Counted from the stretch's first letter, positions 250-61,665 are shown. The stretch is DNA of 64,000 nt from Pachysolen tannophilus NRRL Y-2460 (GCA_001661245.1 KV454015.1:310001-374000); one strand, 5' to 3'. A program made the numbers and translations. The notes: a model not told the origin generated them from the sequence alone.

Positions 250-1779
250 CTATTGATAACCGACTCTTTCAAAGGCAAATGCCAAGTAGAAACAGCTAGC
301 TTCGTATTCATCACCTTCGATTCCATAAGTTCCATCACTTCTTCTTATTCCTTCTAGTAGTCTTCTGTTTAATTTGTAAAAATAATTTGGGATTTCTTCT
401 TTAAATAAATCTCCAAAATTTTTTTTGTATCTTAAAGATAAATCGTATTCTTCGGCTATACTTCTAAAAGCTTCAAATGGGACAACGTACTCAGGAACAT
501 TGTCAACAGCATCTTTTAAGAAATATGTGTACATGTTGCCGTATGGTTGGGTGAAATAACCATCTTTTGGGGGTGGATGTTCAAAATCAACACTATATAT
601 TGAATTCCCCCATTTTGTTTCACCTTGTGGTAAATTCTTAATTTTATCAGCAATGAAATCAGATGATGGTATGGTACCTATGAAATGACCTCCAATCTTC
701 AAAGATTTGGAGACATTTGAAAGCATTGTTCGAACTATTTCTTCAGAACGAAATCCATAATGCATACAAAATTGCATAGAACATATATCTACTGGCATCA
801 ATGTAGTTATCTCTGGGAATGGCAGAAGAATCTCTGTGATACTATTTCCAAAGCAATCTGCAGTTATAAAGAAAGATTGAAAATTAGCCTGATTTCTGGT
901 TGAAATTGTCTTGTACCTACGAATGGCTTCAGTGATGGAATCAGATGAAATATCAAGACCAATATAAGTTGAAACATTTGCTAAAGCCCATTTCTGTAAA
1001 TCTCCACCTTTACCACATCCTAAATCAATGACAGAGTCATTCAGTTTACCAAACTTGTTAATCAATATATATTTAATACAATTGTTGAAATTACGTAATT
1101 TAATGATGGGTGAAGTTCTTCTATTTTCACGTCTCGCCAAATGCGTTCTTTGATTATAATGCTGCTTCACTATATCATCAACCTCTAACTCTCCTGAATT
1201 AATCAGTTGTACTCTCTTAAGATTCGACTCTATCATTTTCTGTTCTTTTAAATCTTCTCTTTGACGAATCAATTCTGCTTCTTTTAATTGATCTTCAAGA
1301 TTTCCTCTTCCTTTCCTTTTCTTCAACTTCCTACCTTCATTGTTCGTAGTGGTAGTTGCCTCTACCCGTTGAGAAAATTTGGCAAATTCATCATCTTTCA
1401 TCCAAGCAGGCTTATTAGGAGCCAGTCCTACCAGTGTTGTAGGCAGTTTTGGTAACTCCTCTTTCTCATCATTTTTTTCGTTATTTATATCCAAATCATC
1501 TCTTCTTCTTCCCATCAAAGCTTCTTCGTTATTCAGTCTCTTCATATGATTTTTCTTCCTCTCTTCATCTCTATTACGAAGCGAATACTCCTCATATAAC
1601 GAATCTTTAGTACCTTTTATAAGCATTCTTCTTCTAGGTTTTGAAAGTTCACTAGCTGTAGTTGTTCCCGCCTTAGTTTCCACTTTTTCCACTTTTTCCA
1701 CTTCTGTCTTCATGGCAATACTGTCTTCTGGCTTACCATTATCAGCCAAAACCTCATTTTCTCCTCCTTCATTCGACAT
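250..1779 (-). CDS. ABD1: mRNA cap guanine-N7 methyltransferase
   Basis: 509-aa ORF with SPIIKLRNFNNCIK, SAM-binding VIDLGCGKGGDLQKW, MQFCMHYGF, GGHFIGTIP and AVDNVPEYVVPF motifs. Confidence 0.95.
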   Translation of the reverse strand: MSNEGGENEVLADNGKPEDSIAMKTEVEKVEKVETKAGTTTASELSKPRRRMLIKGTKDSLYEEYSLRNRDEERKKNHMKRLNNEEALMGRRRDDLDINNEKNDEKEELPKLPTTLVGLAPNKPAWMKDDEFAKFSQRVEATTTTNNEGRKLKKRKGRGNLEDQLKEAELIRQREDLKEQKMIESNLKRVQLINSGELEVDDIVKQHYNQRTHLARRENRRTSPIIKLRNFNNCIKYILINKFGKLNDSVIDLGCGKGGDLQKWALANVSTYIGLDISSDSITEAIRRYKTISTRNQANFQSFFITADCFGNSITEILLPFPEITTLMPVDICSMQFCMHYGFRSEEIVRTMLSNVSKSLKIGGHFIGTIPSSDFIADKIKNLPQGETKWGNSIYSVDFEHPPPKDGYFTQPYGNMYTYFLKDAVDNVPEYVVPFEAFRSIAEEYDLSLRYKKNFGDLFKEEIPNYFYKLNRRLLEGIRRSDGTYGIEGDEYEASCFYLAFAFERVGYQ

Positions 1780-9052: not shown

Positions 9053-10726
9053 ATGTTATCAGTTAAACGTTCATCATTATCAAAATGCTTGGTTTCCCGA
9101 ACTGTGGTTATACGTTATCAAAGTTCTTGTTCTGGTGGTAATAAGGGCCAGGCGGGCCGGATGGGCCAGGCGGGGCAGGCGGCGGCGTCCGCGGCAGCTG
9201 CTGGTTCAGCTTCATCTGGCGGCCATTCGTCTGGGGCTTTTCTTGCAAGACGCTCGCCTCCATTGGATGAGTTAGATCCAATAATCTTGGACCGTATTTT
9301 CCACAAGAATAAGCTGCAATCTGGGTATACAAGACCGTTACAGAATGGTGGGAATGGTGATGGTAACAATAACAGCAATAACAGTAACAACAGCAGTAAT
9401 AATAAAAATAACGATTTGTCGGTAATAGATGAAAATTTAAAACATTTTAAATCAAATATACCTGTTAATTTCCATTACTATTTAAGAAATTTAAATAATT
9501 TAAATACTTTTAAACAATTACCATATAAATTTGGTGAAAATCAAATAATTGAAAATGGGAAACAAGATTATTTAAAATCAATATTATGGGAATTTGATGC
9601 ACCAATAAGGTATTCTTTTGGTTATGGATCTGGAGTATTTGATCAAGGTATTAAATCAGATAAAAAACCTCAAATTGATTTAATTTTTCTGGTTACATTT
9701 CCTGATCATTGGCATTCTTTAAATTTACATCAATTTCCAAATCATTATTCTGGATTAAGATGGTTAGGTTATTCACTGATTGCAAAAGTACAAAAATATG
9801 GAGCAGGAGTATATTTTAATCCATATGTTAAAATGGGTCCTGATAATACTCAATTGGTCAAATATGGTGTTTCTTCAGTTGATAATTTAATGAGTGATTT
9901 AATTAATTGGGATACTTTTTATTTAAGTGGTAGATTACATAAACCAGTTGCAATAATAAGAAATTCTCCAAATATTGCATTATTAAATCAATTTAATTTA
10001 ATTAATGCAATTAAATTATCATTATTATTATTAAATGAAAAAAAAATTTCTGAATATCAATTATATGAAATGATTTCTTGTTTAAGTTTTAAAGGAGATC
10101 CAAGAATGAGTATTGGTGCAGAAAATCCAAATAAAGTTAAAAATATTGTTGATAATAATTTGAATAGTTTTAGACACATGTATTTACCATTGTTGGAAAC
10201 TTATTTTGCAAATCAAGTAATTATTAATAAAAGAAATGATAAAGTTGTTGAAAATTTACAAATTGATGTTTCAAATGAAACAAAATCTCAATATATTGTT
10301 GAATTACCATTTAATTTTAGAAGAAAATTATATCAAATTTATTCAAAAAAATATAATAATTTTTTTGCTAAAGATTTAATTGCACAAAATGTTGTTAATA
10401 ATCCAACATTAATTTCAAAAGAAGATTTTGAAAAATCAAAAAATTTATCTTATAAAGATTTAAGTTCTATTGATAATTTAGATACAAATGTTGTTGCTAA
10501 AAAAGATTATGAATATTTACCAACAAATTTAAAGGCTAATTCAGAATTTATTCAAAATATAAGTAAAGATGATAATTTAATTAATAACTTGACCGTTGTA
10601 TTAAAAGATATAATTTATAAACCTGCATTGACTCAAAGTTTTAAAGGTCTTTTAACTGCAGGTTTTTCCAAGAGTTTTGATTATGCTATACATAAAAGAA
10701 CTAAATATAATGACGGTTTAAAATAA
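9053..10726 (+). CDS. TAM41: Mitochondrial phosphatidate cytidylyltransferase (CDP-DAG synthase)
   Basis: FGYGSGVF, GAGVYFNPYV, KYGVSS, YLSGRLHKPV, GDPRM..GAENPNKVKNIV and QSFKGLLTAG motifs; Arg/Ser-rich presequence. Confidence 0.93.
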   Translation: MLSVKRSSLSKCLVSRTVVIRYQSSCSGGNKGQAGRMGQAGQAAASAAAAGSASSGGHSSGAFLARRSPPLDELDPIILDRIFHKNKLQSGYTRPLQNGGNGDGNNNSNNSNNSSNNKNNDLSVIDENLKHFKSNIPVNFHYYLRNLNNLNTFKQLPYKFGENQIIENGKQDYLKSILWEFDAPIRYSFGYGSGVFDQGIKSDKKPQIDLIFLVTFPDHWHSLNLHQFPNHYSGLRWLGYSLIAKVQKYGAGVYFNPYVKMGPDNTQLVKYGVSSVDNLMSDLINWDTFYLSGRLHKPVAIIRNSPNIALLNQFNLINAIKLSLLLLNEKKISEYQLYEMISCLSFKGDPRMSIGAENPNKVKNIVDNNLNSFRHMYLPLLETYFANQVIINKRNDKVVENLQIDVSNETKSQYIVELPFNFRRKLYQIYSKKYNNFFAKDLIAQNVVNNPTLISKEDFEKSKNLSYKDLSSIDNLDTNVVAKKDYEYLPTNLKANSEFIQNISKDDNLINNLTVVLKDIIYKPALTQSFKGLLTAGFSKSFDYAIHKRTKYNDGLK

Positions 10727-23290: not shown

Positions 23291-26200
23291 ATGCCGTATA
23301 CACCACCAGCTGGCAATCATAATATAAGTGACTATCAAAAGATATTATTTAGAAACAAGAACAATCGAAGTAATGAGTCATTTGCCAAGCATCTTGAGGA
23401 GTGTAATGGTAATGGTATAGGGAAGAACGATAAAACGGATAGTGGTCAATTTAAGATGGATTCTGATTTTGATTATTTTACCGGAGCTCTTGATGAAAAT
23501 AAGCCATGTCTTAATGGAAATGGCAATGGGAATGGGAATGGGAATTCCAATAACCAAAAGTTCCAAAGCCTACAAAATTTGCCGAATTTACTGTTTGATC
23601 CACCAAATGCAGCATTTAGACTCACAGACAATAATACCAATAATACCAATGATAACTGTGTGGTTGATAATAGATCAATAAATCCAGTCATGGGCATATC
23701 GAATACGGATTTATCTGAAATTTTGAGATTCCCAAGAGAATCACCTCAAGCTTATTCGTATGCGCAATTGTCTCCAAACTCTTTAGCTTTAAGATTAAAC
23801 GTTTTGAAAAGATCGTTGGAGATAATGATTGAGAGACCAGAATTGTTTTCATCTTTAAGCAGTATTCATCAAGAAAGTGCATCCAAATCAGTTAACAACT
23901 GTAATAATAATAATAATAATAATAATTCATTAAACGGCATAACGGGAGCAGAAATGATAAAATCTCCTACAAGAAATAGCATATCAAACATATACGAAGA
24001 AGATGGGAATACCGTTAAAGTGGAGTCAGGTGCATCGGCAGCTGCTTTATCGGCATTATTTAAACAACATTTACCAAACTACAGTTCGAGACCAGGAACT
24101 CCAACTCCAAGTCGAAAAGTTTCATTAGATAATGGATTTGGAAAATCTGTGGAATCTTTGAATGAAACTACTTATGATTTAAAAGATGTTATTAGACTAT
24201 TGGAGAATAAGCAGATTATAGATGTGCGGAGATCAAATTCTTCAGGAATGGTTAACGAGTTGCATGATTTGTCTCTATCAAATTTGAGAACTGATAATTC
24301 AAGGCAAATTGACTTACAAATAAGATTATTACATGCTTTAGCAACACCATTCCTCGAAAATGTCGTTTCATCTACCCAATCGCAATCATCTAATGCTCGT
24401 CGTCAGTTATACTCTTCAAGCACATCTACTTTAGCTTTATCATCTCTACAACAACAGCAACAACAATTACAAGAGAATCTGAGCATGCAGTCACCAACTA
24501 ATCTTTACTTTCATTCAATGTCAACAAATAAAAAGACAACACCACAAGCCATTTTTACTTGTGAAGTCAAAGATCCTTGGACCATGAAAGCCGCAAACGA
24601 TATGGCTTGTCTTATGTTTGGAGTTTCTAAATCATCGTTAAAGTCATTTAGACTAATGGATTTGATAGCGCCAAGATCAAGAGATTTTGTTAGATCAAAA
24701 TTGTTGAACCATAGAGGAAATCAAGTTTTCACAGGTGAAATAGTAGCCATTGCAAGACCAGATAATGCAATGGCTTGGACCTCCTTATGGGCTAAAATAA
24801 AGAACGATTTGATTATTCTTATCTTTGATCAAGTTCCGTGTGATTCGATTGATATAGTCATGGAAAGAAAGAAAGGATCTATCTCATATGTGATTAAGTC
24901 CTATATTGAAAAATCGGGTGATTCTTTATTTCATGCGGAAGAAGTCTGTGGTAAAAATGTTGGTGAAATTATTAATTGCATTGACAAAGATATAGAAGAA
25001 TTGGAATCCGGTGTGGGATGTCCATTTCTGAATAGTAATGTTGTATCATCTAAGATAAAGGAAACAAGATATTACACACTTTCTGTAAATGATATTGCTA
25101 TTCCGTCTGTCATAACGTCAATTACCTTAGATGATGGTTACGATACAGAATCATCTTTGGTGAAATTGAATATACATGCTTTACATTATATGGCAGGTAC
25201 ATTTGTTATATCGTCCAGAGATTTTTCTATTTTGTCTTATAATTCAGCAATCGCTAAAAACTTGTTTGGCCATGGGGAATTATCAAACAAATCAATAGAT
25301 CACTTATTACCAAATTTTTCAGCATTATTGAATGAAGCTTTGGCAAGAGAACCAAGCTTAAAAGATCAATGCGGTTTGGTATTACCAGAACATTTTTTCA
25401 GAAAATTATCGGCTCAAATATCAAGTGGATTTGACGAAACAAAAGCTGAGTATTTATTTTTGAATTCAAATGGTATTGACGGTTTGCATAGAGATGGAAA
25501 AATCTTTAAAGTTGACGTTCAACTTAGGGTCTGCAACAGTCAATCATTTGTAGTTTGGATCACCTACTCTAGAAGCGTCAGTGCTAAATCTTCTAAAAAT
25601 GATAACCAGCGATCGGAAAAACCTCGAATTCACTTCGATAATGTTGTGGGTGGTAGAAGTAATTTTTCAGATATAGGAGAAGACTGTGCAAGACAGAACA
25701 TTAATGGTCGACAAACTGATCGAGAAATTGACTTACCTTCTCAGATGGACTTATTTCCAGAGAATGACAACGAAATAGCCTCTTGTGGGTCATCGAATGA
25801 TGCACTAAGTAGAAGTAATAGCACAAAATTGGAAGATATACACAAGCCAAATACTTCATTTGATTTGAAAATAGAAAAATTAAAACACAGGCATTTATCA
25901 TCATCAGATTCTTCAACTACTACTTCTTTAAATAAAGCTTTATCGTCTTTGAAAGTCACACCGAATTATAATCGCAGGGTGCCATCTTTGTCAAATTCTA
26001 CAACCAGCAGTGATCAGTCTGTTGGTTCTACAAGATTATCTCCTTCCAGTTCAAGTGATGCGGTTGCAACAACTAAAAGTATGGTATTATCCAATATTGA
26101 GCACAGTAATAAACAGCAACAACAACAGCAACAACAACGTGATATGAAATTGGTTGAATTAAATGGAAAAATTTGTCCAATTTACAACGAATCAGAGTTA

Positions 26201-27175
26201 TTGGAGATGGAAAATGAAGAGCTTAAATCTATCAAATCAAAATCGTCCTTATGGCCAAAAGAAGTAGGTCTCAAAAGAAGGGAAAAGAAATTATCAGATT
26301 TTGTTATATTGAAGAATATGGGTGAAGGTGCTTATGGTAAAGTAGTTCAAGCTCAACATAAAGATGATCCTTTTTATAAACTAATTATCAAATGTATCGT
26401 TAAAGAAAGAATTTTAGTTGATACTTGGGTGAGAGATAGAAAATTAGGTACAGTACCCTCAGAAATTCAAATAATGGTAACTTTAAACCACAACCCTCAC
26501 CCTAATATTATGAGAATAGTAGATTTTTTTGAAGACCAGCAGTACTACTATTTGGAAATTCCACAGCATGGAGATCCACCAGCAATTGACTTGTTTGACC
26601 TCATTGAAATCCATTCATCAATGATTGAACTTGAGTGTCGTTACATCTTTAGACAAATTGTTAGTGCTATGAACCATTTACATAAGAATGGTGTTGTTCA
26701 CAGGGATGTAAAGGATGAAAATATAATTGTTGATACAAAAGGAATAGTTAAGTTGATTGATTTTGGTTCTGCAGCCTATGTTAAAAATGGTCCATTTGAT
26801 GTCTTTGTTGGTACTATTGATTATGCTGCACCAGAAGTTTTGAATGGTAAACCATACGAAGGTAAACCTCAAGATGTCTGGGCTACCGGTGTTTTGTTGT
26901 ATACATTACTCTATAAAGAGAATCCATTCTATAATGTTGATGAGATTATGGAAGGAGAATTGAGGATACCGTATGTGGTTAGTGAAGGTGCAACTAGTTT
27001 GATCAAAAAAATCTTGAACAGAGACATTGAGAAAAGACCAACAATGCAAGAAATTCTAGAACATGAATGGTTAATTTCAGTAAAATTATATAACGCCTTT
27101 CCTTTTCTTCCCATTACTTTTTTTTTTTTTTTTTTTTCATGTGTTTTCTTTTTGTTTAATTTCATTTGTTCATAA
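23291..27175 (+). CDS. PSK1: PAS domain Ser/Thr kinase (Psk1/Psk2); the C-terminal ~30 aa are doubtful
   Basis: LSPNSLALRLNVLKRSLEI, PAS-like AANDMACLMFG, kinase GEGAYGKV, KERILVDTWVRDRKLGT, HRDVKDEN, DFGSA and GTIDYAAPE. Confidence 0.92.
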   Translation: MPYTPPAGNHNISDYQKILFRNKNNRSNESFAKHLEECNGNGIGKNDKTDSGQFKMDSDFDYFTGALDENKPCLNGNGNGNGNGNSNNQKFQSLQNLPNLLFDPPNAAFRLTDNNTNNTNDNCVVDNRSINPVMGISNTDLSEILRFPRESPQAYSYAQLSPNSLALRLNVLKRSLEIMIERPELFSSLSSIHQESASKSVNNCNNNNNNNNSLNGITGAEMIKSPTRNSISNIYEEDGNTVKVESGASAAALSALFKQHLPNYSSRPGTPTPSRKVSLDNGFGKSVESLNETTYDLKDVIRLLENKQIIDVRRSNSSGMVNELHDLSLSNLRTDNSRQIDLQIRLLHALATPFLENVVSSTQSQSSNARRQLYSSSTSTLALSSLQQQQQQLQENLSMQSPTNLYFHSMSTNKKTTPQAIFTCEVKDPWTMKAANDMACLMFGVSKSSLKSFRLMDLIAPRSRDFVRSKLLNHRGNQVFTGEIVAIARPDNAMAWTSLWAKIKNDLIILIFDQVPCDSIDIVMERKKGSISYVIKSYIEKSGDSLFHAEEVCGKNVGEIINCIDKDIEELESGVGCPFLNSNVVSSKIKETRYYTLSVNDIAIPSVITSITLDDGYDTESSLVKLNIHALHYMAGTFVISSRDFSILSYNSAIAKNLFGHGELSNKSIDHLLPNFSALLNEALAREPSLKDQCGLVLPEHFFRKLSAQISSGFDETKAEYLFLNSNGIDGLHRDGKIFKVDVQLRVCNSQSFVVWITYSRSVSAKSSKNDNQRSEKPRIHFDNVVGGRSNFSDIGEDCARQNINGRQTDREIDLPSQMDLFPENDNEIASCGSSNDALSRSNSTKLEDIHKPNTSFDLKIEKLKHRHLSSSDSSTTTSLNKALSSLKVTPNYNRRVPSLSNSTTSSDQSVGSTRLSPSSSSDAVATTKSMVLSNIEHSNKQQQQQQQQRDMKLVELNGKICPIYNESELLEMENEELKSIKSKSSLWPKEVGLKRREKKLSDFVILKNMGEGAYGKVVQAQHKDDPFYKLIIKCIVKERILVDTWVRDRKLGTVPSEIQIMVTLNHNPHPNIMRIVDFFEDQQYYYLEIPQHGDPPAIDLFDLIEIHSSMIELECRYIFRQIVSAMNHLHKNGVVHRDVKDENIIVDTKGIVKLIDFGSAAYVKNGPFDVFVGTIDYAAPEVLNGKPYEGKPQDVWATGVLLYTLLYKENPFYNVDEIMEGELRIPYVVSEGATSLIKKILNRDIEKRPTMQEILEHEWLISVKLYNAFPFLPITFFFFFFSCVFFLFNFICS

Positions 27176-30202: not shown

Positions 30203-31165
30203 ATGAAGTATTCCGTTTTAGTGTTTTCCTTATTACAAACTTTGAGTTTCACCAGCGCTGCTGCTGTTGCAGCTGGTGCAGGTGTCGATATTAGTGTTGG
30301 AGACATTGGTATTGATCTTACTGTTGGACTGGATACAGTCACAGTTACAGACGATGTGACCGTCACTGATGATGTTACCGTTACTGATTCTGTCACAGTT
30401 ACAGATTCAGTTACAGTTACGGATTCAGTTACTACTACTGATTTCCCAACAACTGCAACACCAACAACTGCAACACCAACAACTGTAGCTCCAACAACTG
30501 ACGTTCCAACTACTCAAGTTCCAACTACTGATGTTCCAACTACTGATGTTCCAACTACTGATGTTCCAACTACTGATGTTCCAACTACTGATGTTCCAAC
30601 AACTGACGTTCCAACTACTGATGTTCCAACTACTGATGTTCCAACTACTGATACTCCAACAACTCAAGCTCCAGCACCACCAGTCACCGTAACTACTACT
30701 TTGACTCATCATTTCCCAACTCCACCAGGATTGACTACTAGAAGTCCAATTATTCCTTTTACTTCCTACTTCAATTCTTCATCAGTGGCACCAACAACCT
30801 CATCATCACCAGTTCCACTCCCTGACACTACAACTACTAATCCAGGAGGTCCAATTGAACCTACAACATCTACTAACCCAGGTGGTCCAATTGAACCTAC
30901 TACAACTTCTCCGGATACAGGTTTCCCAACTACAACTTTAACTACTCCAGGAGCAACATTTGATACTACTACATCAGCTGCAGTTGCAATTGGTTTCCAA
31001 TGTGGTGGTTTCGGATTTGATGGTAGCACTGATTGTGTTAGTTCAGCTACTTGTAGTACTTTGGACCCATACTATGCTCAATGTGTTGAGACATCTATTG
31101 CTGATCTCGGTATTCCACCAAGATGGATCCGTAGACGTGGGGAAATTGCAAATGCTTTGTTCTAA
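30203..31165 (+). CDS. Secreted Thr/Pro-rich repeat (mucin-like) protein with a C-terminal CBM1 cellulose-binding module
   Basis: Signal peptide MKYSVLVFSLLQTLSFTSAAA; VTVTD[D/S], PTTDV and TNPGGPIEPT repeats; QCGGFGFDGSTDCVSSATCSTLDPYYAQC has the CBM1 cysteine spacing. Confidence 0.85.
   Translation: MKYSVLVFSLLQTLSFTSAAAVAAGAGVDISVGDIGIDLTVGLDTVTVTDDVTVTDDVTVTDSVTVTDSVTVTDSVTTTDFPTTATPTTATPTTVAPTTDVPTTQVPTTDVPTTDVPTTDVPTTDVPTTDVPTTDVPTTDVPTTDVPTTDTPTTQAPAPPVTVTTTLTHHFPTPPGLTTRSPIIPFTSYFNSSSVAPTTSSSPVPLPDTTTTNPGGPIEPTTSTNPGGPIEPTTTSPDTGFPTTTLTTPGATFDTTTSAAVAIGFQCGGFGFDGSTDCVSSATCSTLDPYYAQCVETSIADLGIPPRWIRRRGEIANALF
30337..30667 (+). repeat. Intragenic minisatellites: 18-nt (VTVTDD/S) units followed by 15-nt (ccaactactgatgtt, PTTDV) units
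   Basis: Near-identical tandem units read directly in DNA and protein. Confidence 0.9.
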
Positions 31166-33917: not shown

Positions 33918-35316
33918 TCATTCATCGATTGTGGTGTTGTTGGTTGCATTGTGCATGCTGACTTCAGCAATAGTTGTGTCATCATTTTTAGTAATATCCT
34001 GGATTATAGTATCATCTGGATGATGAGATCGAGATTGGTAGTCTCTGTAAATCTTGCTAGGATCAGACATCATAGAAACTGTCTTTGTTGGCTTTGTATC
34101 TGATATTTCCTTCCAATCTTTGGATTGTGCATTATCATTTGTTAATTTTTTCTTATCTCCAATTTTAATACTATTTGTTTTACCAAATGCATTTTTTTCA
34201 AATGTCCAAGAACCTAATGAAGAATTTTTTTTATCAATTGTGTTAATAGACAGAGGTAATTTATCTCTCAAGATTTTATCATCTTCTTCCATTTTTTTAC
34301 GAATTAATGCCACATCAGCTAAAAAATCTTTTTTAACTGTACCAACATTTGTATCTTTAAAACTATCATTAAAATTACACCATTTCACATTATATATGGA
34401 AATTGATGCACCATCATGATTTGAAAGCCAACTTCTAGAATTATAGTTATTTCTATAAGAACCTTGATATTTTTGTAAAGCTGGTAATATGATTAAAGTA
34501 ACAATTAAATCACCTTCTGTTGTTGGATTTTCTTCATTATCAAAAGGTAACAAATTTTGAATTGATTTTAAATTATCAAGATTCCCCGGTGTTGAAGATA
34601 TAATTTCAGATTTATCAATAATATTTTTAAAATTTTTAAACGGAGATTCAGAAGGTATAACACCACAATGGTATAATATAGAAACAATATCTGAATCATC
34701 AGTATATATATCTGTTCCCCAAATACTTCTTTTAAAAACATTTTCATTATTTAAAATAGCATGATAAGGAATTTTAATATCTACCAAACAATTAATATAA
34801 TTTTTCAAATAAGGTGGAAGTAAAGAAATAATCTTGGAAGGTTTATTCTTCAACTCTTTTTCATGCTTTATTAAATATTCTTGATAATCCAATTCATCTT
34901 CTTTAACTCTTCGTTCATCTTCTTTTGTCAATCTTAAATTTCTAACCACAGTATCTCTAGTTGGAAATTGTTGATATATTATTGAACCAAGATGCTTCCT
35001 AGGAAACAAATTTGCATCTTCCAAGACAGATTTATTATTGATAATAGTTTTAGGTTTTTTGAAAGGAACAGGATTTAAATCCTTAGTACTAATATCTATA
35101 TCAGCAACTCTTTTCCAATAAACTGGGGTCTCTGCAGATTGAGATCTATGACGCAGATGACTCGACAGTCCACCTGGACGAGAATAGTGGCGATGGTGGT
35201 GATGATGGTGATGATGGTAATGTATAGGCGGCCGCTCTTGTTCTTTGTTTTGAACTTGTAATTGATACTCTGCAGCCAGCAGTAGCTGTTCCAGTTGTTG
35301 CAGCTGCAGCAGCTGC

Positions 35317-35353
<37 letters not shown>

Positions 35354-36665
35354 GCTGTTGCTGTTGCTGTTGCTGATGAACAAACAGCAGTTGTTGCAGT
35401 TGCTGCTGCTGAAATAATTGATAGTTCAATTGTCGTTGTTCCTCCATCATCGCTTCTTGGCGTTGATGTTCTTCTAAAGCTCTGTGCCTTTCCAGTTTCA
35501 GGTGCTGTTCGTATAAGGCCTGTTGCAGTTCTTGTTCCTGCTGCAGCTGCAGTTGCAGCATCAGTTTAAGCATTTTCTCTCTTTCTCTTTTTTCTTTATT
35601 TTTACGTTTCCGTTCTTCTTTTATTCGTTTTTCCTTTTCTTCTTCTTCGAATCTTATTCTTTCTTGTTCTTGTCTTTGAGCTTCTATTAGTTGTAATTCT
35701 TTTTCTCTTTGTTCTTCTAAATCAGGTACTATATTTTGTCTTCTAATATCAATACCTAGCTGGACAGGAGTTGGTAAATTGTATAACATTCTCTTGTCCT
35801 CGGAACCTGCATTTTTCGTATGAGATTGTTGAGACAGTGAAGAAGCTAGCGAAGTTCGTGGCAGTGGAAGTTGCAGTTGCAGAGGAGGTTGCAGTTGCAG
35901 TAGAGGCAGCGATGCCAGCGATGCCAGCAGCAGCAGCAGCAGATGATGGTGGTGATGGTTATGGTGTTGGTGATTAACATCTTCCAATTTGATAGGGTTT
36001 GTATTTGCCAAACTGTTGATGTTGGGTAACCTCGAAGACGACGATTGCTGTGATTGTTGTGATTGTTGCGGGTGTTGCGGGTGTTGCGTATGCTGCGGCC
36101 CGTTGTTATTCCCAGAACTATTATTTCTATTATCATTTATTGCCGTAGCAGCACCAGGAGTACTTTTGTTACCATTTCCAGCTCCAAAAGGCACAGGTCC
36201 AGGTACGGGCACAGGTCCATATGGAGAAGTTGCCGAGCCTAATGGAGGTAAATGGACCCCACTTCCAATACCTGAGGAGGAATGCCTGCTATGTGTTTGA
36301 GTATGAGTCTTAGGTTCTTGTTGTTGTTGTTGATGTTGATGCAGTGCAGCTGGACCTTTATCGCTACTGTTATGAACATCACTGCTTGGTGACAACAAGT
36401 TTGAGAGTCCCATTGTGGCCGACGAGTTTGAAGGCCTTGTAAAAGAATTTAATAGAGAAATTGGAGCCAACCTAATACCAGATCCCGAACCAGATCCAGG
36501 ACCAGACGCTTGTCCAGACCCTGAACCGCTGTTATTGGCGGTTCCATTATCTTCATTATTCCCATTCGAATTATTCTTCCCAACATTCCCAGAAACGTTG
36601 CCCTGTGAAATAGAAGGCAAGCGCACACCACTGCTTGTGTTATTATTGAGCGGTAATTGAGACAT
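33918..36665 (-). CDS. RXT3: Rpd3L histone deacetylase complex subunit Rxt3 with a long low-complexity N-terminus
   Basis: IWGTDIYTDDSDIVSILYHCG, YQGSYRNNYNSRSW..HDG and FPRKHLGSIIY; near RPL31 as in S. cerevisiae. Confidence 0.88.
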
Positions 36666-40566: not shown

Positions 40567-41610
40567 TCATATATGTGACATTTCAAGTCTATTTTTTCTA
40601 CTTGGGATTTCTATTCTTTCTCCAAATCCTGGTTCATTGTTTCTTTTAAGATCGAAATTCTCATCAAACCAGTCAACCATTTCCACTGTTGATTTCAAGT
40701 CCATTAGTTGTAAATGTAAGGCTTTATCGATTTGACCTTCTAACATACAATCCATATGATGTTGTAAAAGTCTAAATGGTAATCCATATGAAGAAGCTAA
40801 ATCCCAAAATTTTTCAATAGCTCCCCATGGGGTCTTGGAGAAACCAGCAAATAGTGCTGGGTTCAGTAATATTCCTCTAACAGCCATAATACCATCAGCA
40901 TTAGTATAATTTGCTATCTTATAGGCATCTTCTAATGAAAAACAATCACCATTTGCAACAACGGGGCAACTAACATTTTCTTTAATTAATTTTATTGCAT
41001 CAAAATTTGCTGGTTGTGAAGACCTTGTTGTCTTTGTTCTTCCATGAACTGTAATAAAATCAACACCTGCTTTTTCTATAATTTTAGCAAATCGTACAGT
41101 TTCTTGTAAATCATCATGAATTCTAATTTTTGTTTCCATACATAATTTATCTCCATATTTTGATTTTACTGCAGAAACAAGTTCTGCAACTTTTTCAGGT
41201 GTTGACATTAAAGCTGCACCAATTCCTTCTCTAACTTGTTCTTTAACAGGACATCCACAATTTAAACCTATACCATCAACATAAGGATAAATCATTTCAC
41301 ACATTCTTAATAAATCAGTTACATTATTACAACCTATTTGTACAATTAATGAACGATCTCTTTCATTTGTTGTAAAATCAGAATATCTAGCAATATCATT
41401 TCTAACAAATTCTCTAGCAAGAATCATAGGTGAATAAACAATATCACATTTATATTGTCTTAACAACTCTCTAAATGGTAATTTCGAATACCGAACCATA
41501 GGACCAGCAATAAATGCAGGTCTTTTCTCTTTCTTACATCTAGCCAATATAGCTAATGGATTATGTTCTGGATTCCTCAGTGGTAGTGTAGAAAGATTTG
41601 GTTCAATCAT
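40567..41610 (-). CDS. DUS4: tRNA-dihydrouridine(20a/20b) synthase
   Basis: AGPMVRYSKLPFR, LNCGCP, GIGAALM, ITVHGRT and VANGD motifs; ATG (MIEPN) at 41610. Confidence 0.93.
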   Translation of the reverse strand: MIEPNLSTLPLRNPEHNPLAILARCKKEKRPAFIAGPMVRYSKLPFRELLRQYKCDIVYSPMILAREFVRNDIARYSDFTTNERDRSLIVQIGCNNVTDLLRMCEMIYPYVDGIGLNCGCPVKEQVREGIGAALMSTPEKVAELVSAVKSKYGDKLCMETKIRIHDDLQETVRFAKIIEKAGVDFITVHGRTKTTRSSQPANFDAIKLIKENVSCPVVANGDCFSLEDAYKIANYTNADGIMAVRGILLNPALFAGFSKTPWGAIEKFWDLASSYGLPFRLLQHHMDCMLEGQIDKALHLQLMDLKSTVEMVDWFDENFDLKRNNEPGFGERIEIPSRKNRLEMSHI

Positions 41611-44173: not shown

Positions 44174-44560
44174 ATGTCAAAAAGAAACCAGTTTTTCTTT
44201 TTCTTTTTTTTTTTTTATTTTAATTTTTATCTTTTATGAGATATAATTAAGAGTTTGATAAATAATTTTATTATTAAATTTATTGATGCACTTTTTAATT
44301 TTGTTTTCTTATTCTCTTGATTCAGAAGAATAAGAATTACTTTTATGTTTTGGTTCAAATGAAAATCCTTTACCAGCTGGACCTAAAAACATTTCAGATA
44401 TTTTAATCCAATCTTTGTAATCACTTGAGCCTAACAACGTTTCTAATTCATTTCTTCCTTTCCACAGAGGTGGTCTTTCATTTAACTTTGGTGGAAGCCT
44501 TTCTAAGATACCAATTGGAATATATCTATGAGTAAAAGACATGAATTCACATAAAAATCT
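44105..44560. other. Inverted segment carrying the 3' ends of DUS3 and YET3 and their intergenic region (breakpoints +/- a few nt)
   Basis: Reverse-complementing this segment gives ...[15 protein letters not shown]... (complete Dus3) and ...AILKE-QAESLSKDY...KKKA (complete Yet3). Confidence 0.9.
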
Positions 44561-45190
44561 TTCTTTTAATATAGCAATAGTATCATTTCTCTCTCCTAAA
44601 GTACGCTTCAATGAAGCAACCTCGTCGCTATCAACACTCGAACGCTTTTCAGCAGAAGTAGCTTGATCTTTAACAAGTAACAATTCAGCAACTAAAGCAT
44701 AAGTTCTATTTAATATCAACGTCAAAAATAAAGTAAACCCGCATAGATACATATTTCTTTGAGCATAAAACTTTCTGGCTTGAATCTCTGCCCTACTATC
44801 TGGTGCAATAGCCGAAGGAATGATACCACTAGTGATTCCACCACCTTTACTGGAAGGACCCAACTCTGCTGTAACTCTAAAGACTCTATTGACGGAATCA
44901 ATGAATAGAACTAGTATGAAACCTAATATGCATCTGAATGCAATTTGAACCTCTTGAGAACGCAAAGGCTTACTAACCGTTGAGAGCAATGGTCTTCTAA
45001 ATCTTCTAGGTAATGGTAATGATAGAAGAGTGAAGAGTCCCATTTCAATTACCAATAGAGAAAATACCTAAAATATACATAACAATTGACAATAACATGT
45101 TAATAATGCTTCCTTCACAATTATTTTCGAAATCAAAAAAAAAAAAAAAAAAAAAACTAAGAAACTTACTAAACTGTAATACAACGCCAT
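44309..45190 (-). CDS. YET3: BAP31/Yet3 ER membrane protein (aa 1-176; exons 45190-45170 and 45067-44309) fused in frame to the 83-aa Dus3 C-terminus
   Basis: Spliced start [55 protein letters not shown]; then [47 protein letters not shown]. Confidence 0.9.
45068..45169 (-). other. Spliceosomal intron of YET3 (102 nt)
   Basis: GTAAGT donor at 45169, TATTAAC branch-like site at 45105-45099, TTTAG acceptor ending at 45068; phase 0. Confidence 0.85.
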
Positions 45191-48275: not shown

Positions 48276-48710
48276 NNNNNNNNNNNNNNNNNNNNNNNNN
48301 NNNNNNNNNNNNNNNNNNNNNNNNNNNNNNNNNNNNNNNNNNNNNNNNNNNNNNNNNNNNNNNNNNNNNNNNNNNNNNNNNNNNNNNNNNNNNNNNNNNN
48401 NNNNNNNNNNNNNNNNNNNNNNNNNNNNNNNNNNNNNNNNNNNNNNNNNNNNNNNNNNNNNNNNNNNNNNNNNNNNNNNNNNNNNNNNNNNNNNNNNNNN
48501 NNNNNNNNNNNNNNNNNNNNNNNNNNNNNNNNNNNNNNNNNNNNNNNNNNNNNNNNNNNNNNNNNNNNNNNNNNNNNNNNNNNNNNNNNNNNNNNNNNNN
48601 NNNNNNNNNNNNNNNNNNNNNNNNNNNNNNNNNNNNNNNNNNNNNNNNNNNNNNNNNNNNNNNNNNNNNNNNNNNNNNNNNNNNNNNNNNNNNNNNNNNN
48701 NNNNNNNNNN
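48276..48710. other. Assembly gap (435 N) flanked by poly-A tracts
   Basis: N run in the sequence. Confidence 1.
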
Positions 48711-49391: not shown

Positions 49392-50609
49392 ATGAGTGCA
49401 TCTTTGAAAAGATTTCCTTTGAAAGAGACAAATTTATTCAAGCCGATAAAGCTTGGGGAATGTCTTGCTCAACATAGAGTTGTACTTCCTCCTTTAACAA
49501 GATATAGGTGTGATAATTATACACCTACAGATTTAGTTGCTGATTATTATGAGCAAAGATCTAAAAGACCTGGAACTTTTATGATTTCAGAAGGAACTTT
49601 TATAAGTGCTCAAGCAGGTGGTTGTATTGGAGTTCCTGGGATATATGATGATTCAAGACAAAAAGCATGGTCAAAAGTAATTTCTAAAATTCATAAAAAT
49701 AATTCTTTTATTTTTATTCAACTTTGGGGGTTAGGAAGACAAGCTGATCCAGTATTATTACTGAATGAGGGAAATTATCCATTTGTATCTCTGAGTGGGA
49801 TATATGAAAGTGAAGCTTCTAAAATTGCAGCTATAAAGGCAAATAGACCATTAAGACCATTAACTAAAATTGAAATAAATCAATATATTGAAGATTATGT
49901 TTCAAGTTCAATACGTGCAATTAAAGCAGGTGCAGATGGTGTTGAAATTCATTCTGCAAATAGTTATTTATTAGATCAATTTATTCAAGAAATTTCCAAT
50001 AAGAGAACTGATGAATATGGTGGTTCAATAGAAAATAGATCAAGATTATTATTAGAAATTATTGATAAAGTTATAAATGAAATTGGTAGTCATAGAGTTG
50101 GTGTAAGATTTTCACCTTGGGGAAAATTTGGTGGTATGGGTTGGTATAATCAATCACCAATTCCTCAATATTCTTATATTTTAAAAGAATTAGAAAAAAA
50201 AGCTCAAATGGGAAAAAGATTAGCATATGTTCATTTTGTTGAACCAAGAGTTTCAAATTTTAAATTAGTTTCTTCAGAAACAGAAGGTAGTAATAATTTC
50301 ATATATGATCATTGGAAAGGTAACGTTATTAGAGCAGGAAATTATACAAATGATTATGAAGCTACAAAGAGAGATGTTAATAGCAACGATAGAACGTTGA
50401 TTGCTTATGGTAGATTCTTTACCTCAAATCCAGATCTTCCAAATAGATTGGAAAAAGGTCTCCCATTAACTCCATATAACAGAGATCAATTTTATAAATC
50501 AGGTCCTGGTGGCTTTGGTTATACCGATTATCCAACTTACGAACAAATCATCATGAATGAGGAAACTCAAGCCAAAAAAATTAGCATAGGTTTAACCAGT
50601 AATTTATAA
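49392..50609 (+). CDS. Old yellow enzyme (NADPH:flavin oxidoreductase / ene-reductase)
   Basis: LFKPIKLG, PPLTRYR, QLWGLGR, GADGVEIHSANSYLLDQF, RTDEYGGSIENR, GRFFTSNPDL and GYTDYP. Confidence 0.95.
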   Translation: MSASLKRFPLKETNLFKPIKLGECLAQHRVVLPPLTRYRCDNYTPTDLVADYYEQRSKRPGTFMISEGTFISAQAGGCIGVPGIYDDSRQKAWSKVISKIHKNNSFIFIQLWGLGRQADPVLLLNEGNYPFVSLSGIYESEASKIAAIKANRPLRPLTKIEINQYIEDYVSSSIRAIKAGADGVEIHSANSYLLDQFIQEISNKRTDEYGGSIENRSRLLLEIIDKVINEIGSHRVGVRFSPWGKFGGMGWYNQSPIPQYSYILKELEKKAQMGKRLAYVHFVEPRVSNFKLVSSETEGSNNFIYDHWKGNVIRAGNYTNDYEATKRDVNSNDRTLIAYGRFFTSNPDLPNRLEKGLPLTPYNRDQFYKSGPGGFGYTDYPTYEQIIMNEETQAKKISIGLTSNL

Positions 50610-50764: not shown

Positions 50765-51799
50765 ATGGAACGTATACTTGGAGGGCTATATATATCATCT
50801 ATTCAGCCTTTACTTGATAAAGTTGATTTTAAAAAAAATTATAACATAACTCATATATTATCAGTTCTTCCAGGCCCAATACCGAATGAAGATGAGTATT
50901 TAAAAAATTATGTTCATAAACAGATAGAAGTTGAGGATGATGATTTAACCAATATAATACAATTTTTCCCAGAATGTAACAAGTTCATTGATAGTGTGTT
51001 ATTTCCACAAGGTTTCAATGCTAAAGAGAAGAAACCTCAAAAACATCTGGGTGCTGTATTGATTCACTGTGCACAAGGTTGTTCTAGATCTGTTACAATT
51101 GTTTGTGCATACTTGATGAGAACATATGGGTTAGATGTAGAGAAAGCTTTATTTGCTGTTAAGCGTAAGAAACTGGATATTTCACCAAATGATAATTTTC
51201 TTGAACAATTGAAATTATACGAGTTTTTATTAAATAAAGATGATTTTTTAAATGATAAAATTTATAGACAATGGTTATTAATGCATAACGTTAAATTAGA
51301 TCCAACTGGTTCACAATTGATTCAAGAAAAAGATTTTTTCAAAAATGATACTGGAATACAAGAAAATGGGATGGGAAAATTTATTGAACTTCGTTGTAAA
51401 AGATGTAGACAACGTCTTGCTTCATCAAATACCTTTGTCCCACATGATCCACCTTCATCTTCTTCTGAAGATAAGCAATCTTTATTTATTAGAAAAGCTC
51501 CACATTCAAATAGAATAATAAGTATGGAACAAGGTGCAAATTTTTGTTCTCATTACTATGTGGAACCATTAAGATGGATGCAGGAAGAATTATTAAAAGG
51601 TGAATTAGAAGGAAAATTTAAATGTTTGAAATGTGATCTGAAAGTAGGAGGTTATTGTTGGCAAGGTTCTCGATGTTCTTGTGGAAGATGGATGATTCCA
51701 GCTATTTATCTACAAAGCAATAAAGTCGATGCATGTGAAGTAAAGAAAGATATTATACATAGTGTGAGGGTAAACTCTAATAATGATAGTATAAGTTAA
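50765..51799 (+). CDS. YVH1: Dual-specificity phosphatase with C-terminal zinc domain (DUSP12 orthologue)
   Basis: HCAQGCSRS catalytic motif; RCKRCR, CSHYYVEPLRWM and GSRCSCGRWMIPA. Confidence 0.95.
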   Translation: MERILGGLYISSIQPLLDKVDFKKNYNITHILSVLPGPIPNEDEYLKNYVHKQIEVEDDDLTNIIQFFPECNKFIDSVLFPQGFNAKEKKPQKHLGAVLIHCAQGCSRSVTIVCAYLMRTYGLDVEKALFAVKRKKLDISPNDNFLEQLKLYEFLLNKDDFLNDKIYRQWLLMHNVKLDPTGSQLIQEKDFFKNDTGIQENGMGKFIELRCKRCRQRLASSNTFVPHDPPSSSSEDKQSLFIRKAPHSNRIISMEQGANFCSHYYVEPLRWMQEELLKGELEGKFKCLKCDLKVGGYCWQGSRCSCGRWMIPAIYLQSNKVDACEVKKDIIHSVRVNSNNDSIS

Positions 51800-57322: not shown

Positions 57323-58426
57323 TTATTTGGTTATTTTTTGCCATTCTTTAAGTGCTTGTTCATAATCTTGTTCAACGTCCAAAGGTTTTTGTTGTAATTT
57401 TTCCAAAAGATTTGATCTTTCTTTTAATTCTATAGAATCATATTTTTCCTTTTCATCAACCCATCTTTCTTGAATATCAATATAATTATTATTTAATTTA
57501 TTCTCTGTTAAAACGCTTTGCCAAATATTATCTCCACCAAGTTCATTTGTACCAAAGACATACCCATTTGCCTTATCTATTATAGATAATATATTAATCA
57601 TTGATTTTTTATCTTCAATAGATAATACTTCAAATGAAATTAATCCAAAATCTTCAATTAATTCAGAAATCAGTTTTGTTAATTTGTTATAATTTTTATT
57701 AAATTCTAATTTTGATTGTAAACAAGAATTATAATTATTTTCTTCATTATTTAAATAAGGTAAAAGATATGAAAGATCTTGTACTTGAGTATAATAATTT
57801 AAATCAAATGGTAATCCATTTTTGAATTCTTCATCATCATCATCACCATCTTTATAAACTTCTTGTTCAATTAAATTCTTTAATAAATCAATCTTACTAA
57901 AAATATTAACTTGTGGTAAATCTAATTGTAACATTGATCGAAGTGTTAATAATAAAATACTAATATATTGTGAAGGTTTAATAATATTAATACAATCTAC
58001 TAATGAAACAACACATAATCTCATATCTAATTCTTTAACCAAATGATTAAATAAATGATTGAAAACATCATTATTGGTGAAAAGTTCAACTTGTCCAGGA
58101 CAATCAAATATTAAATAACATGATTCTTTATCATTTATTAATTTTTTAATTTGTTTTGTAAATAAATTTATCTTAGATCCAAATATTTCAAGAGCATATA
58201 TTAACCCACCATTTGGACCTAACCCTTCTTGATCCATTATCTCTTCCAAAGTAATATAATCCCGAATATCAATTTCAACATCATAAGGTAACCTATCATT
58301 AGCAGGATCTAAATTTATAACAAATGACATTCGTCCAATAGAATTTAAAAACTGGTTCATACCATTACAATAAGTGGATTTCCCGCATCCTGGGTGTCCT
58401 ATAACAACCTGACCATATGGAGCCAT
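57323..58426 (-). CDS. GPN2: GPN-loop GTPase 2
   Basis: YGQVVIG.PG.GKSTYC, NLDPAND, LGPNGGL, FDCPGQVELF, SKIDL and IDKANGY. Confidence 0.93.
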   Translation of the reverse strand: MAPYGQVVIGHPGCGKSTYCNGMNQFLNSIGRMSFVINLDPANDRLPYDVEIDIRDYITLEEIMDQEGLGPNGGLIYALEIFGSKINLFTKQIKKLINDKESCYLIFDCPGQVELFTNNDVFNHLFNHLVKELDMRLCVVSLVDCINIIKPSQYISILLLTLRSMLQLDLPQVNIFSKIDLLKNLIEQEVYKDGDDDDEEFKNGLPFDLNYYTQVQDLSYLLPYLNNEENNYNSCLQSKLEFNKNYNKLTKLISELIEDFGLISFEVLSIEDKKSMINILSIIDKANGYVFGTNELGGDNIWQSVLTENKLNNNYIDIQERWVDEKEKYDSIELKERSNLLEKLQQKPLDVEQDYEQALKEWQKITK

Positions 58427-58680: not shown

Positions 58681-61665
58681 ATGGGACAGCAAAAAGTTGA
58701 AGATTTGGTTAGTCTTATGGGTGCCAGTGATGAGACAATAAAGGGTCTAGCTGCAAAGATTACTAGTAATGGCAGTGAGTTATCAGAAGAAGAAACATCA
58801 AAACTCAACAGTTTGGTGAAGTTGATGAATTTGTTGGATTTGGAGAATGATAAGATAAAGTCTAGTGGTGGTACAGATGGTGGTAATATCGACGATGCTG
58901 AGACAGAAAATGAAGATTTTGTTGAAATTAGAGAGGAGTTGGATGAACATGATAATATTACAAGTGCTGTAATTAGGCCACTGAAAACACTTGTTGCAGA
59001 GACTGTTAATAATAATGTTAGTACTGGAAATATAACAGGAACCAAGGAAGAAAGATCAAGTGATTTTCCAGGTGTTGATACAAGGGGGAAACTAGATGGA
59101 AAAAATGAAGAAACTATTAAGGATGAATTACTGCCACAAACTAAGATTTCTAGTTTAAAAATTGAAAACCTGAACCAAAAAATTGATGAAGATGATGATG
59201 ATGATACAGAGAAACAAATTAAGGAATTACTTCAAGAAATGTATATAACAGATGAAAAATTAAATCAAGAAAGTAGCAATAAAAATGATGAAAAGAAAAA
59301 ATTATTGACTGATTTTGAAATGAATTTAAAGGCTAAAATGTTTAGGAATACAAGAGCAGCTAATGCTAAAAAGGAAGAAGAGGAAATTTTATCAAAAGAT
59401 AAAAAAGATAAAATTATCCAAGAGAATAATTTGAATAACAAACATGTTACTTCTGTGGAAAAAAATTTAGAGGAAATTGAAACTCAATCGTCACCATCAA
59501 TTCCAGAAAATGCATTATTGGAGTTGGAATTAATAGCTACTGAAGAATTACTGGACAGTATGAACCAATTTGAAAATGAAGAAGAAGATAGTAGTTTTAA
59601 GTATGCTGATGATGAAGAATGGGATTTTGACTTTGATGAAGATGATGATGTAGATGATGATGATGACTACGATTATGAATTTTTCAAGAATGATAGTAAT
59701 GCTGATAATATGTTATGGAGTCAAATTAACGCCTTACGTGGAGCTAAAATAAAAGACGAATCTTCTTCTAACTCAAAAGCTAATCTGGTCTCCTCTGACT
59801 CAATTGAAGAAGTTTTGTTTACAAAAGAACCTGATACAAATAAAGTACCCAAGAAATCAAATTTAAAACAACCTTCTGAAACCAAAGAATCAGATCCAAA
59901 GAAACAGAAGAAACTGGTTTCATTTCTGGGAAATTTACAGATCAAAGAAATTGAAAATATAAGTTCGGAATTGAAGAATTACAACTATGAATTAAATGAA
60001 AATAATGAAAGTTATAGTTATGGTTTTGTTGATGACAATAATAGTAGCGATATCAGTTTCCATAATATGTTGTGGAATCAAATTAATACTTTACATAATA
60101 ATAATTCCTTTAAAAATGAACCAGATTCTGATGTCATTGATGTTCCCTCAGATATCGGATCAAGAAACATTGATTTATCAAATGGAGTTCATACACCACT
60201 GTTTAAAATCCCAAGCTCAGAATCATCTTCTTTCAAAAGTGGATCTCAAGAAAAGGTTAAAGCAGCTTCTTCTGCTGTAAACTTTCAAATTAAAGAAGTT
60301 GAAAACTTAGACGCAGCAAAATTAAATGATAATGATGATCATAAAGAACCAAGAATCTCCAAATTTAGACAAGCCAGATTAGTTAATCATAATAAACATG
60401 ACAAGAATAACAATCACGATAAAGTTGCTGATCATAAGATCATTGCTGAATCCTCTGAACCTGAGACTCCAATATTAGAACATGTCGTAGAAAGACCAAT
60501 AGTTGAAGATCCAAAATTAATGGAGAATTTGAATAATCATCATCAGGTTGAAGAATATTATGGTTTGAATAATGGTAACTCGACAACTGCCCATAAAACT
60601 AAAGATGCAAAGAAACAGTCCAGGTTCAAGCAAAGTAAGAATATGAAACTGGAGGCTATGTCTGGTTTTAGGAACCAAGAGTTAAATGATTTCATTCCTA
60701 CTCAATTGAGACTGGAAAATAAGATCCCAATTCTTGATGGAAAATATGAAGAACAATTTCAAGATGAAGAAAAATCCAAGGTTTCTCTGTTCAAACAAGA
60801 AAGTTTAAATAATAAAATTAATAATAATAATAGTATACCAGAGTTGAAACTAGGAAATATTTCTAAATTTTCTAAAAATATGAACTCGTTGAAGCAACCC
60901 AGTTTAAAACAAAAACAAGTTTCACAAAAGACCAACAATACTATTTCTGTTCCTGCTGTGGAACCTGAATGGAAAAAAAATGAGAAATCAGAAGAAGATA
61001 CCCATGGTAAAGGACAGTTAAAAAAAGTTGGACCTAATAGACCTGGAGCGTCAAATTCAAAAACAAATTATGTCACCACAGATGTCGTAGAAGTCATAGA
61101 ACCACCATTAAACTACTCAATGTTACAGGATGACATGGACGCTATGGCTAAAGCGTACGTTTCGGGAATGTACGATGACGATATAAAAGTCGATGGTGAA
61201 GTCATTGAGAAAATGGAAGATTTTGAAAAAGTTAATAAAATTATTGAAAAAAATGAAAGAAGGCCAATAAAAAAAGAAAGTGAAGAAAATAAAAGTGATG
61301 AGATTTATTATAATGACGATGATCAGGATAAAGTGGAACCTGAACTAGACGAGGACGACGAAGATGCAGAGGTTATGGTTGATCAAATCCTTGAACATGA
61401 ATTTAGTGATCATGACGATGAAATCGATGAGGACTTATCATTAACTCAAGATTTTTTGGCTCAAGAAGTTTCAATTGAGTATTCCAAGTTAAGGACAAAA
61501 ATGATTATGGAGAAAAACCAAAACTTTAAAAAATCTAAAGATGAAGAACAATTTATTCCAATTGATGAAATGGGTAACGATTTGAAAATAAGTAGATTCA
61601 GATCTGCCAGATTGGTTTTAAAAGATGATATCGCTAAAAATACTAAAAATACAGGGAATAACTAA
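58681..61665 (+). CDS. BUD27: Bud27/URI-like protein (acidic, DUF3835-type C-terminus)
   Basis: FVEIREELDE, MLWSQI, MAKAYVSGMYDDD..GEVIEK.EDF, repeated SRFK/SKFR motifs and terminal KISRFRSARL. Confidence 0.7.
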   Translation: MGQQKVEDLVSLMGASDETIKGLAAKITSNGSELSEEETSKLNSLVKLMNLLDLENDKIKSSGGTDGGNIDDAETENEDFVEIREELDEHDNITSAVIRPLKTLVAETVNNNVSTGNITGTKEERSSDFPGVDTRGKLDGKNEETIKDELLPQTKISSLKIENLNQKIDEDDDDDTEKQIKELLQEMYITDEKLNQESSNKNDEKKKLLTDFEMNLKAKMFRNTRAANAKKEEEEILSKDKKDKIIQENNLNNKHVTSVEKNLEEIETQSSPSIPENALLELELIATEELLDSMNQFENEEEDSSFKYADDEEWDFDFDEDDDVDDDDDYDYEFFKNDSNADNMLWSQINALRGAKIKDESSSNSKANLVSSDSIEEVLFTKEPDTNKVPKKSNLKQPSETKESDPKKQKKLVSFLGNLQIKEIENISSELKNYNYELNENNESYSYGFVDDNNSSDISFHNMLWNQINTLHNNNSFKNEPDSDVIDVPSDIGSRNIDLSNGVHTPLFKIPSSESSSFKSGSQEKVKAASSAVNFQIKEVENLDAAKLNDNDDHKEPRISKFRQARLVNHNKHDKNNNHDKVADHKIIAESSEPETPILEHVVERPIVEDPKLMENLNNHHQVEEYYGLNNGNSTTAHKTKDAKKQSRFKQSKNMKLEAMSGFRNQELNDFIPTQLRLENKIPILDGKYEEQFQDEEKSKVSLFKQESLNNKINNNNSIPELKLGNISKFSKNMNSLKQPSLKQKQVSQKTNNTISVPAVEPEWKKNEKSEEDTHGKGQLKKVGPNRPGASNSKTNYVTTDVVEVIEPPLNYSMLQDDMDAMAKAYVSGMYDDDIKVDGEVIEKMEDFEKVNKIIEKNERRPIKKESEENKSDEIYYNDDDQDKVEPELDEDDEDAEVMVDQILEHEFSDHDDEIDEDLSLTQDFLAQEVSIEYSKLRTKMIMEKNQNFKKSKDEEQFIPIDEMGNDLKISRFRSARLVLKDDIAKNTKNTGNN

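Follow-up and report, generated by a model that had tools for sequence, protein, structure and literature searches.

CTG codons in a 64-kb window of a budding-yeast genome are placed as alanine codons, in agreement with the known CUG-Ala code of Pachysolen and its relatives

Translation of CUG as alanine in Pachysolen and its relatives is a known code, in print since 2016 (PMC4937558, PMC5951914). According to Mühlhausen et al. 2016 (PMC4937558), the Pachysolen tRNA with the anticodon CAG groups with the alanine tRNAs, carries the G3:U70 pair and A73, and is without the long variable arm of the serine tRNAs; LC-MS/MS data presented in the same paper place alanine at the CUG positions of Pachysolen. 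A second report on the CUG-Ala code, also of 2016, is given as reference 12 in Krassowski et al. 2018 (PMC5951914). The latter study describes an Ala clade (Pachysolen, Nakazawaea and Peterozyma) that splits within the Pichiaceae from the Leu2 clade, to which it assigns Kuraishia, Komagataella, Ogataea and Pichia. The Ala clade has been raised to the order Alaninales, for which CUG = Ala serves as a diagnostic character in the description by Groenewald et al. 2023 (PMC11182611). In the taxonomy this order holds a single family, the Pachysolenaceae. The second of the two 2016 reports is that of Riley et al. (PNAS). CTG stands for Ala in NCBI translation table 26, which bears Pachysolen's name.

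In the genomes that follow the CUG-Ala code, CTG is rare, stays off the conserved leucine sites and is found at conserved alanine sites. The same holds for the stretch of DNA analysed here, 64 kb in length and referred to below as the window, in which no feature was found that distinguishes it from the known code. The CUG-Ser codes (translation table 12, and the Ser2 clade with Ascoidea and Saccharomycopsis) share with it the loss of CTG from leucine and the depletion of the codon at conserved leucine sites, whereas the residue to which the window points is Ala (decoder scores of +7.9 for Ala and -2.4 for Ser, described below). Finally, ambiguous decoding of CUG is reported for Ascoidea asiatica in PMC6041473.

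The window has a G+C content of 28.7% and contains 29 open reading frames (ORFs) of at least 100 amino acids under the standard code. Pfam provided a name for 26 of the 28 ORFs that were scanned, all of which correspond to ordinary housekeeping genes of a budding yeast. The products include a cap methyltransferase, subunit B of DNA polymerase epsilon, kinases, Tam41, fumarase and Rit1, two dihydrouridine synthases, an old yellow enzyme (OYE), a Yvh1-type phosphatase and a Cox10-like UbiA prenyltransferase, as well as Rpn8, TBCA, a GPN-loop GTPase and a Bud27/URI-like protein. The ORFs and codons that matter for the argument are collected in Table 1. CTG is a rare codon in the 29 ORFs, with a count of 107 among 14,903 codons (7.2 per thousand). 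A preliminary description of the window had cited five CTG codons (at 49761, 49791, 51638, 9689 and 59926) in favour of an alanine reading; all five are indeed CTG, lie in frame and have the flanking residues that were quoted for them.

Table 1. Positions in the window of the ORFs and CTG codons discussed in the text.
Feature	Position	Strand	Remarks
Abd1-like mRNA cap guanine-N7 methyltransferase ORF	250..1779	-	PF03291, E 6.8e-114; seven CTG codons
Tam41 (mitochondrial phosphatidate cytidylyltransferase) ORF	9053..10726	+	PF09139, E 4.8e-108; CTG at 9314, 9689 and 9776
Rxt3-domain ORF	33918..36665	-	PF08642, E 8.7e-24; 34 CTG codons
Dihydrouridine synthase ORF	40567..41610	-	PF01207, E 1e-75; two CTG codons
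OYE ORF (NADPH dehydrogenase, OYE2/3-like), 405 aa	49392..50609	+	PF00724, E 1.5e-95; two CTG codons
CTG codon, OYE aa 124	49761..49763	+	homologue column mostly Ala
CTG codon, OYE aa 134, Y(V/D)SAS motif	49791..49793	+	homologue column mostly Ala
Yvh1-type dual-specificity phosphatase ORF	50765..51799	+	PF00782 and Yvh1-named homologues; CTG at 51047, 51173 and 51638
GPN-loop GTPase ORF	57323-58426	-	PF03029; CTG is aa 252 at 57671..57673, motif KLTK[CTG]I
Bud27/URI-like ORF	58681-61665	+	DUF3835 at C-terminus; 11 CTG codons, one after VSF at 59926..59928

The OYE gene offers the clearest view of how CTG is used. Its product is a full-length member of the family, with PF00724 matched over profile positions 1-341 of 342, and it has 7547 homologues at E <= 0.001; OYE chains in the PDB match residues 8-388 with E-values of 1e-117 to 1e-118. 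In a MAFFT alignment of 120 sequences, consisting of the window protein and 119 proteins listed by the homology search, the column of aa 124 contains A 90, K 24, Q 2 and one each of V, T and S, and that of aa 134 contains A 110, P 6 and S 3. Both codons had been described as lying at conserved alanine positions, and this is borne out by the 90 and 110 alanines among the 119 homologues, with Leu in neither column. Only 21 of the 388 well-aligned columns have an Ala content of 70% or more, and the chance that a random pair of sites would both fall into them is 0.0028.

Being about 50% identical along almost its entire length, and having the same Pfam domain, the window OYE is much like OYE1, OYE2 and OYE3 of Saccharomyces. 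It differs from these in having one residue inserted ahead of the Y(V/D)SAS motif and is otherwise an ordinary member of the family. Because of this insertion, as placed by the multiple alignment, the stretch FVS[CTG]S lines up with Y(V/D)SAS. The alignment of this stretch in the preliminary description therefore holds in the multiple alignment, but a different alignment leads to a different outcome: when the protein was aligned pairwise with OYE1 and OYE2 by HMMER, a comparison rejected as a guide for aa 134, the CTG came to stand opposite S or beside a gap, with a shift of one residue around the indel. The closest OYE relative among the matches listed (P0002, 76% identity; the named homologues listed reach at most 54%) has K and P at the two CTG columns, so that not even this nearest of the relatives listed conserves the CTG sites. 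A run of 435 N (48276-48710) lies upstream of the OYE start codon, at a distance of about 680 bases, and a promoter or small gene at that place would be unreadable.

For Yvh1, Tam41 and the cap methyltransferase the CTG codons were entered as X in the queries, because the alignments had to stay unbiased. Alignments were made with 119 listed homologues for Yvh1, with 119 for Tam41, and, for the cap methyltransferase, with the 125 of 150 listed representatives that did not exceed 700 aa, the other 25 being left out. Together with OYE, the four aligned genes have 15 CTG codons, and for 11 of these the column is filled in half or more of the sequences. In Yvh1 the column of aa 95 is variable (K 35, Q 17, R 12, H 11, S 10 and L 6 of the 119 homologues), that of aa 137 has P 50, S 23 and A 20 of 119, and that of aa 292, which corresponds to the CTG at 51638, is a small-residue site (S 50, A 26 and T 18 of 119). 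The CTG at 9689 in Tam41 had been assigned to a small-residue site, and the column of aa 213 agrees with this assignment (G 86 and A 25 of 119). Elsewhere in Tam41, the column of aa 242 contains A 55, V 25, L 12 and F 11 of 119, and that of aa 88 consists mostly of gaps. All seven CTGs of the cap methyltransferase are at variable or gapped positions; the four columns that are occupied by at least half of the sequences are variable, with Leu at 11% at most.

Six further CTG sites were checked against single solved orthologues or paralogues, and at none of these was Leu found opposite the codon. In the GPN-loop GTPase, the CTG is opposite the Ala of KLTKAI in a solved chain of GPN-loop GTPase 3; this match belongs to a second HMMER stretch with an E-value of its own of 0.96, and the match of the motif is clear. 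The CTG of fumarase is opposite Q in the yeast structure and T in the human one, and that of Rpn8 is opposite N in the PDB. In the NDR-type kinase, for which only paralogues were matched, K of Cbk1 is found opposite the codon; in TBCA there is a gap, the CTG lying within an insertion; and in the Dus enzyme the opposite residue is W of human DUS2, a distant paralogue. The Dus site is uninformative because its solved relatives are distant paralogues only, and the structure comparisons for Dus, the NDR-type kinase and TBCA may be read only as 'not Leu'. For the VSF[CTG] site of the Bud27-like gene, the codon and the frame are as had been stated, an outcome that covers the codon alone.

The meaning of the codon was then scored by summing column log-odds over the 11 CTG columns, which resulted in +7.9 for Ala, -2.4 for Ser, -6.9 for Thr and -17.9 for Leu. 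This decoder recovered the standard meaning of 38 of the 39 other codons for which eight or more columns were available (the exception is GAG, which was called D), and when 11 columns of Leu, Ala or Ser codons were drawn at random it was correct in 997, 998 and 998 of 1000 draws, respectively. When each gene was left out in turn Ala came first every time; without OYE the score was +3.0 for Ala as against +0.5 for Ser (a margin of 2.5). Among the 43 columns that are at least 70% Ala, two carry CTG and none carries another Leu codon. In this respect CTG (2 of 11) differs from the other Leu codons (0 of 136; p = 0.005) and does not differ from the GCN codons (20 of 60; p = 0.48). The median Ala fraction is 0.168 in the CTG columns and 0.392 in the GCN columns, a difference that falls short of significance (p = 0.095). 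Variable columns account for six of the 11 well-aligned CTG sites and tell only 'not Leu'.

Under the standard code, CTG would be a rare Leu codon in an AT-rich genome and its matches with Ala would be coincidental. A low frequency of CTG is expected at the G+C content of the window, and some Leu is present in the CTG columns (12 of 119 at aa 242 of Tam41, and about 10% in two Abd1 columns). The distribution of the codon nevertheless speaks strongly against leucine: the median Leu fraction is 0.008 in the CTG columns of the four genes, whereas the 136 remaining Leu codons in these genes have a median of 0.464 (Mann-Whitney p = 2e-6), and 0 of 11 CTGs but 54 of 136 other Leu codons fall in columns that are at least 70% Leu (Fisher p = 0.007). 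The 66 columns with such a Leu content contain TTA 40 times, TTG 8 times, CTT 4 times and CTC and CTA once each, and CTG not at all. Considering also the log-odds of -17.9, the low chance (0.0028) that both OYE CTGs would end up in Ala columns, and the lack of standard-code translations in the public collection (0 of 3 ORFs), a leucine reading is almost certainly wrong. A serine reading, as in Candida and Debaryomyces (Ser1) or in Ascoidea and Saccharomycopsis (Ser2), would explain why CTG is found at small or polar sites, and Ser is indeed the second-best decoding. Two Yvh1 columns even lean slightly towards it, aa 292 (S 50 versus A 26; log-odds 1.71 versus 1.12) and aa 137 (S 23 versus A 20; log-odds 0.94 versus 0.86), and several of the high-ranking Yvh1 matches come from Ser1-clade yeasts, e.g. 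Debaryomyces and Scheffersomyces. Yet the summed score of Ser is negative where that of Ala is positive, and Ser is never first in the leave-one-gene-out series. Ser occurs only 1 and 3 times in the OYE columns that have 90 and 110 Ala, and only once and about 3 times among the 119 sequences in the G/A and A/V/L columns of Tam41. Moreover, the Ser fraction of the CTG columns is below that of the columns of true Ser codons (p = 0.004), CTG is absent from all 31 Ser-conserved columns, and none of the three ORFs that were looked up is on public record in a table-12 translation. We consider it very unlikely that CUG is read as serine in this genome.

CUG could also be ambiguous, with two competing tRNAs that would insert, for example, Ala together with some Leu or Ser, as in Ascoidea asiatica. 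The many CTGs at variable positions that tolerate substitution would at most be compatible with this possibility. Two CTGs, however, occupy columns in the core of a conserved enzyme where Ala makes up 76% and 92%; this argues for faithful decoding as Ala and makes ambiguity unlikely, to the point that we regard it as extremely improbable. Taken by itself, the window thus argues firmly that CUG does not stand for Leu, and on the basis of few columns it favours Ala over Ser. The tabulation of orthologue residues, which had been suggested as a genome-wide check and was run here on four genes, agrees with alanine decoding in that the CTG columns are neither mostly Leu nor best decoded as Ser.

The public protein records of this genome already follow the alanine code. 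In an exact look-up of the Yvh1, Dus and Tam41 ORFs in NCBI, UniRef and nr (and, for two of the three, MetaClust), the translation by table 26 was found for all three, and those by table 1 and table 12 for none. Likewise, the public OYE record (P0001) has Ala at both CTG positions. The table-26 records show that the depositors had already annotated the genome with CUG = Ala, which settles the question of novelty. These public translations are the assumption of the annotators and no independent biological proof. The earlier remark that CTG is mis-called as Leu in the supplied translations holds for the standard-code translation and not for the public record, in which these residues are Ala.

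Alanine as the meaning of CUG in this genome, which had been inferred from the sequence at the outset, is supported by the orthologue columns and by the public annotation, and the relatives would fit it. Very probably, the source of the window is a budding yeast that belongs to the CUG-Ala lineage (Alaninales, Pachysolenaceae) and whose nuclear genes follow NCBI table 26. By analogy with the published work we infer that in this yeast, too, a tRNA derived from a tRNA-Ala gene would carry the anticodon CAG. If such a tRNA retains G3:U70 and A73 as its alanine identity elements, it would on that account be charged by alanyl-tRNA synthetase and decode CUG, and the peptides would be expected to carry Ala at the CUG positions. 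Most of the present-day CTG codons would have arisen after the reassignment, which would explain why they are never located at conserved Leu, and why the positions that they occupy are either variable or those of Ala or a small residue. Within the 64-kb window ARAGORN found no tRNA genes, in the default mode or with introns allowed, and there were no Rfam matches at the gathering thresholds.

The placement of the window among the yeasts can be approached through Tam41. The best named relatives among the matches listed are Kuraishia, Komagataella, Candida arabinofermentans, Brettanomyces and Ogataea. These Pichiales matches have 43-50% identity and 441-495 bits, as compared with at most 357 bits for further records and at most about 308 bits for the Lipomycetes. 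That the nearest named relatives among these matches are Pichiales would fit a lineage neighbouring the Pichiales. Named proteins of the Alaninales are absent from the homologue matches listed, which makes the placement in this order an indirect one.

The main importance of these results lies in correct annotation, and no open question is advanced by them. A standard-code translation puts Leu in the place of Ala at about 7 codons per thousand, and some of the miscalled codons are part of conserved enzyme motifs, such as Y(V/D)SAS in OYE. As to method, a single 64-kb window is sufficient for rejecting CUG = Leu and for preferring Ala.

The Rxt3-domain ORF accounts for 34 of the 107 CTG codons in the window and has an equal number (34) of GCN alanine codons. 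Its CTGs are clustered in low-complexity tracts rich in Q and H, with a (CTG)6 run following a His run, alternations of CTG and CAA, and CTG pairs on either side of a run of 30 CAA/CAG codons. With CUG = Ala these tracts read as poly-Ala and AQAQ repeats. It is conceivable, though we think it rather unlikely, that instability of CAG/CTG trinucleotide repeats has produced new CTG (Ala) codons in bursts after the reassignment. If so, the reassigned codon would spread via low-complexity regions rich in Q and A and not via point mutation at Ala sites. More boldly, one might suppose that tracts of the Rxt3 type tolerate, or even exploit, a residual ambiguity in the decoding of CUG.

Some other observations concern individual ORFs and records. 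Among the Yvh1 homologues, P0139 (50% identical to the window protein) is labelled as part of an Asgard archaeon metagenome-assembled genome, and is probably a eukaryotic (yeast) contamination of the Asgard bin. The PAS-kinase-like ORF at 23291-27175 (+) has, beyond the kinase domain, a Phe-rich tail at its 3' end, FFFFFFSCVFFLFNFICS, which looks like non-coding read-through, either into a T-rich 3' region or past a missed intron or stop. In the ORF at 44309-45043 (-) the match to the Bap31 family begins at profile position 16 and spans residues 1-129 of 244; a first exon may be absent upstream, and the C-terminal half may be in another frame or past an intron. Finally, the ORF at 30203-31165 (+) has a hydrophobic N-terminus, long Thr/Pro-rich tandem repeats (units VTVTD and PTTDV) and, at the C-terminus, a fungal cellulose-binding module (CBM_1, E 5.4e-9), a domain that is uncommon in budding yeasts.
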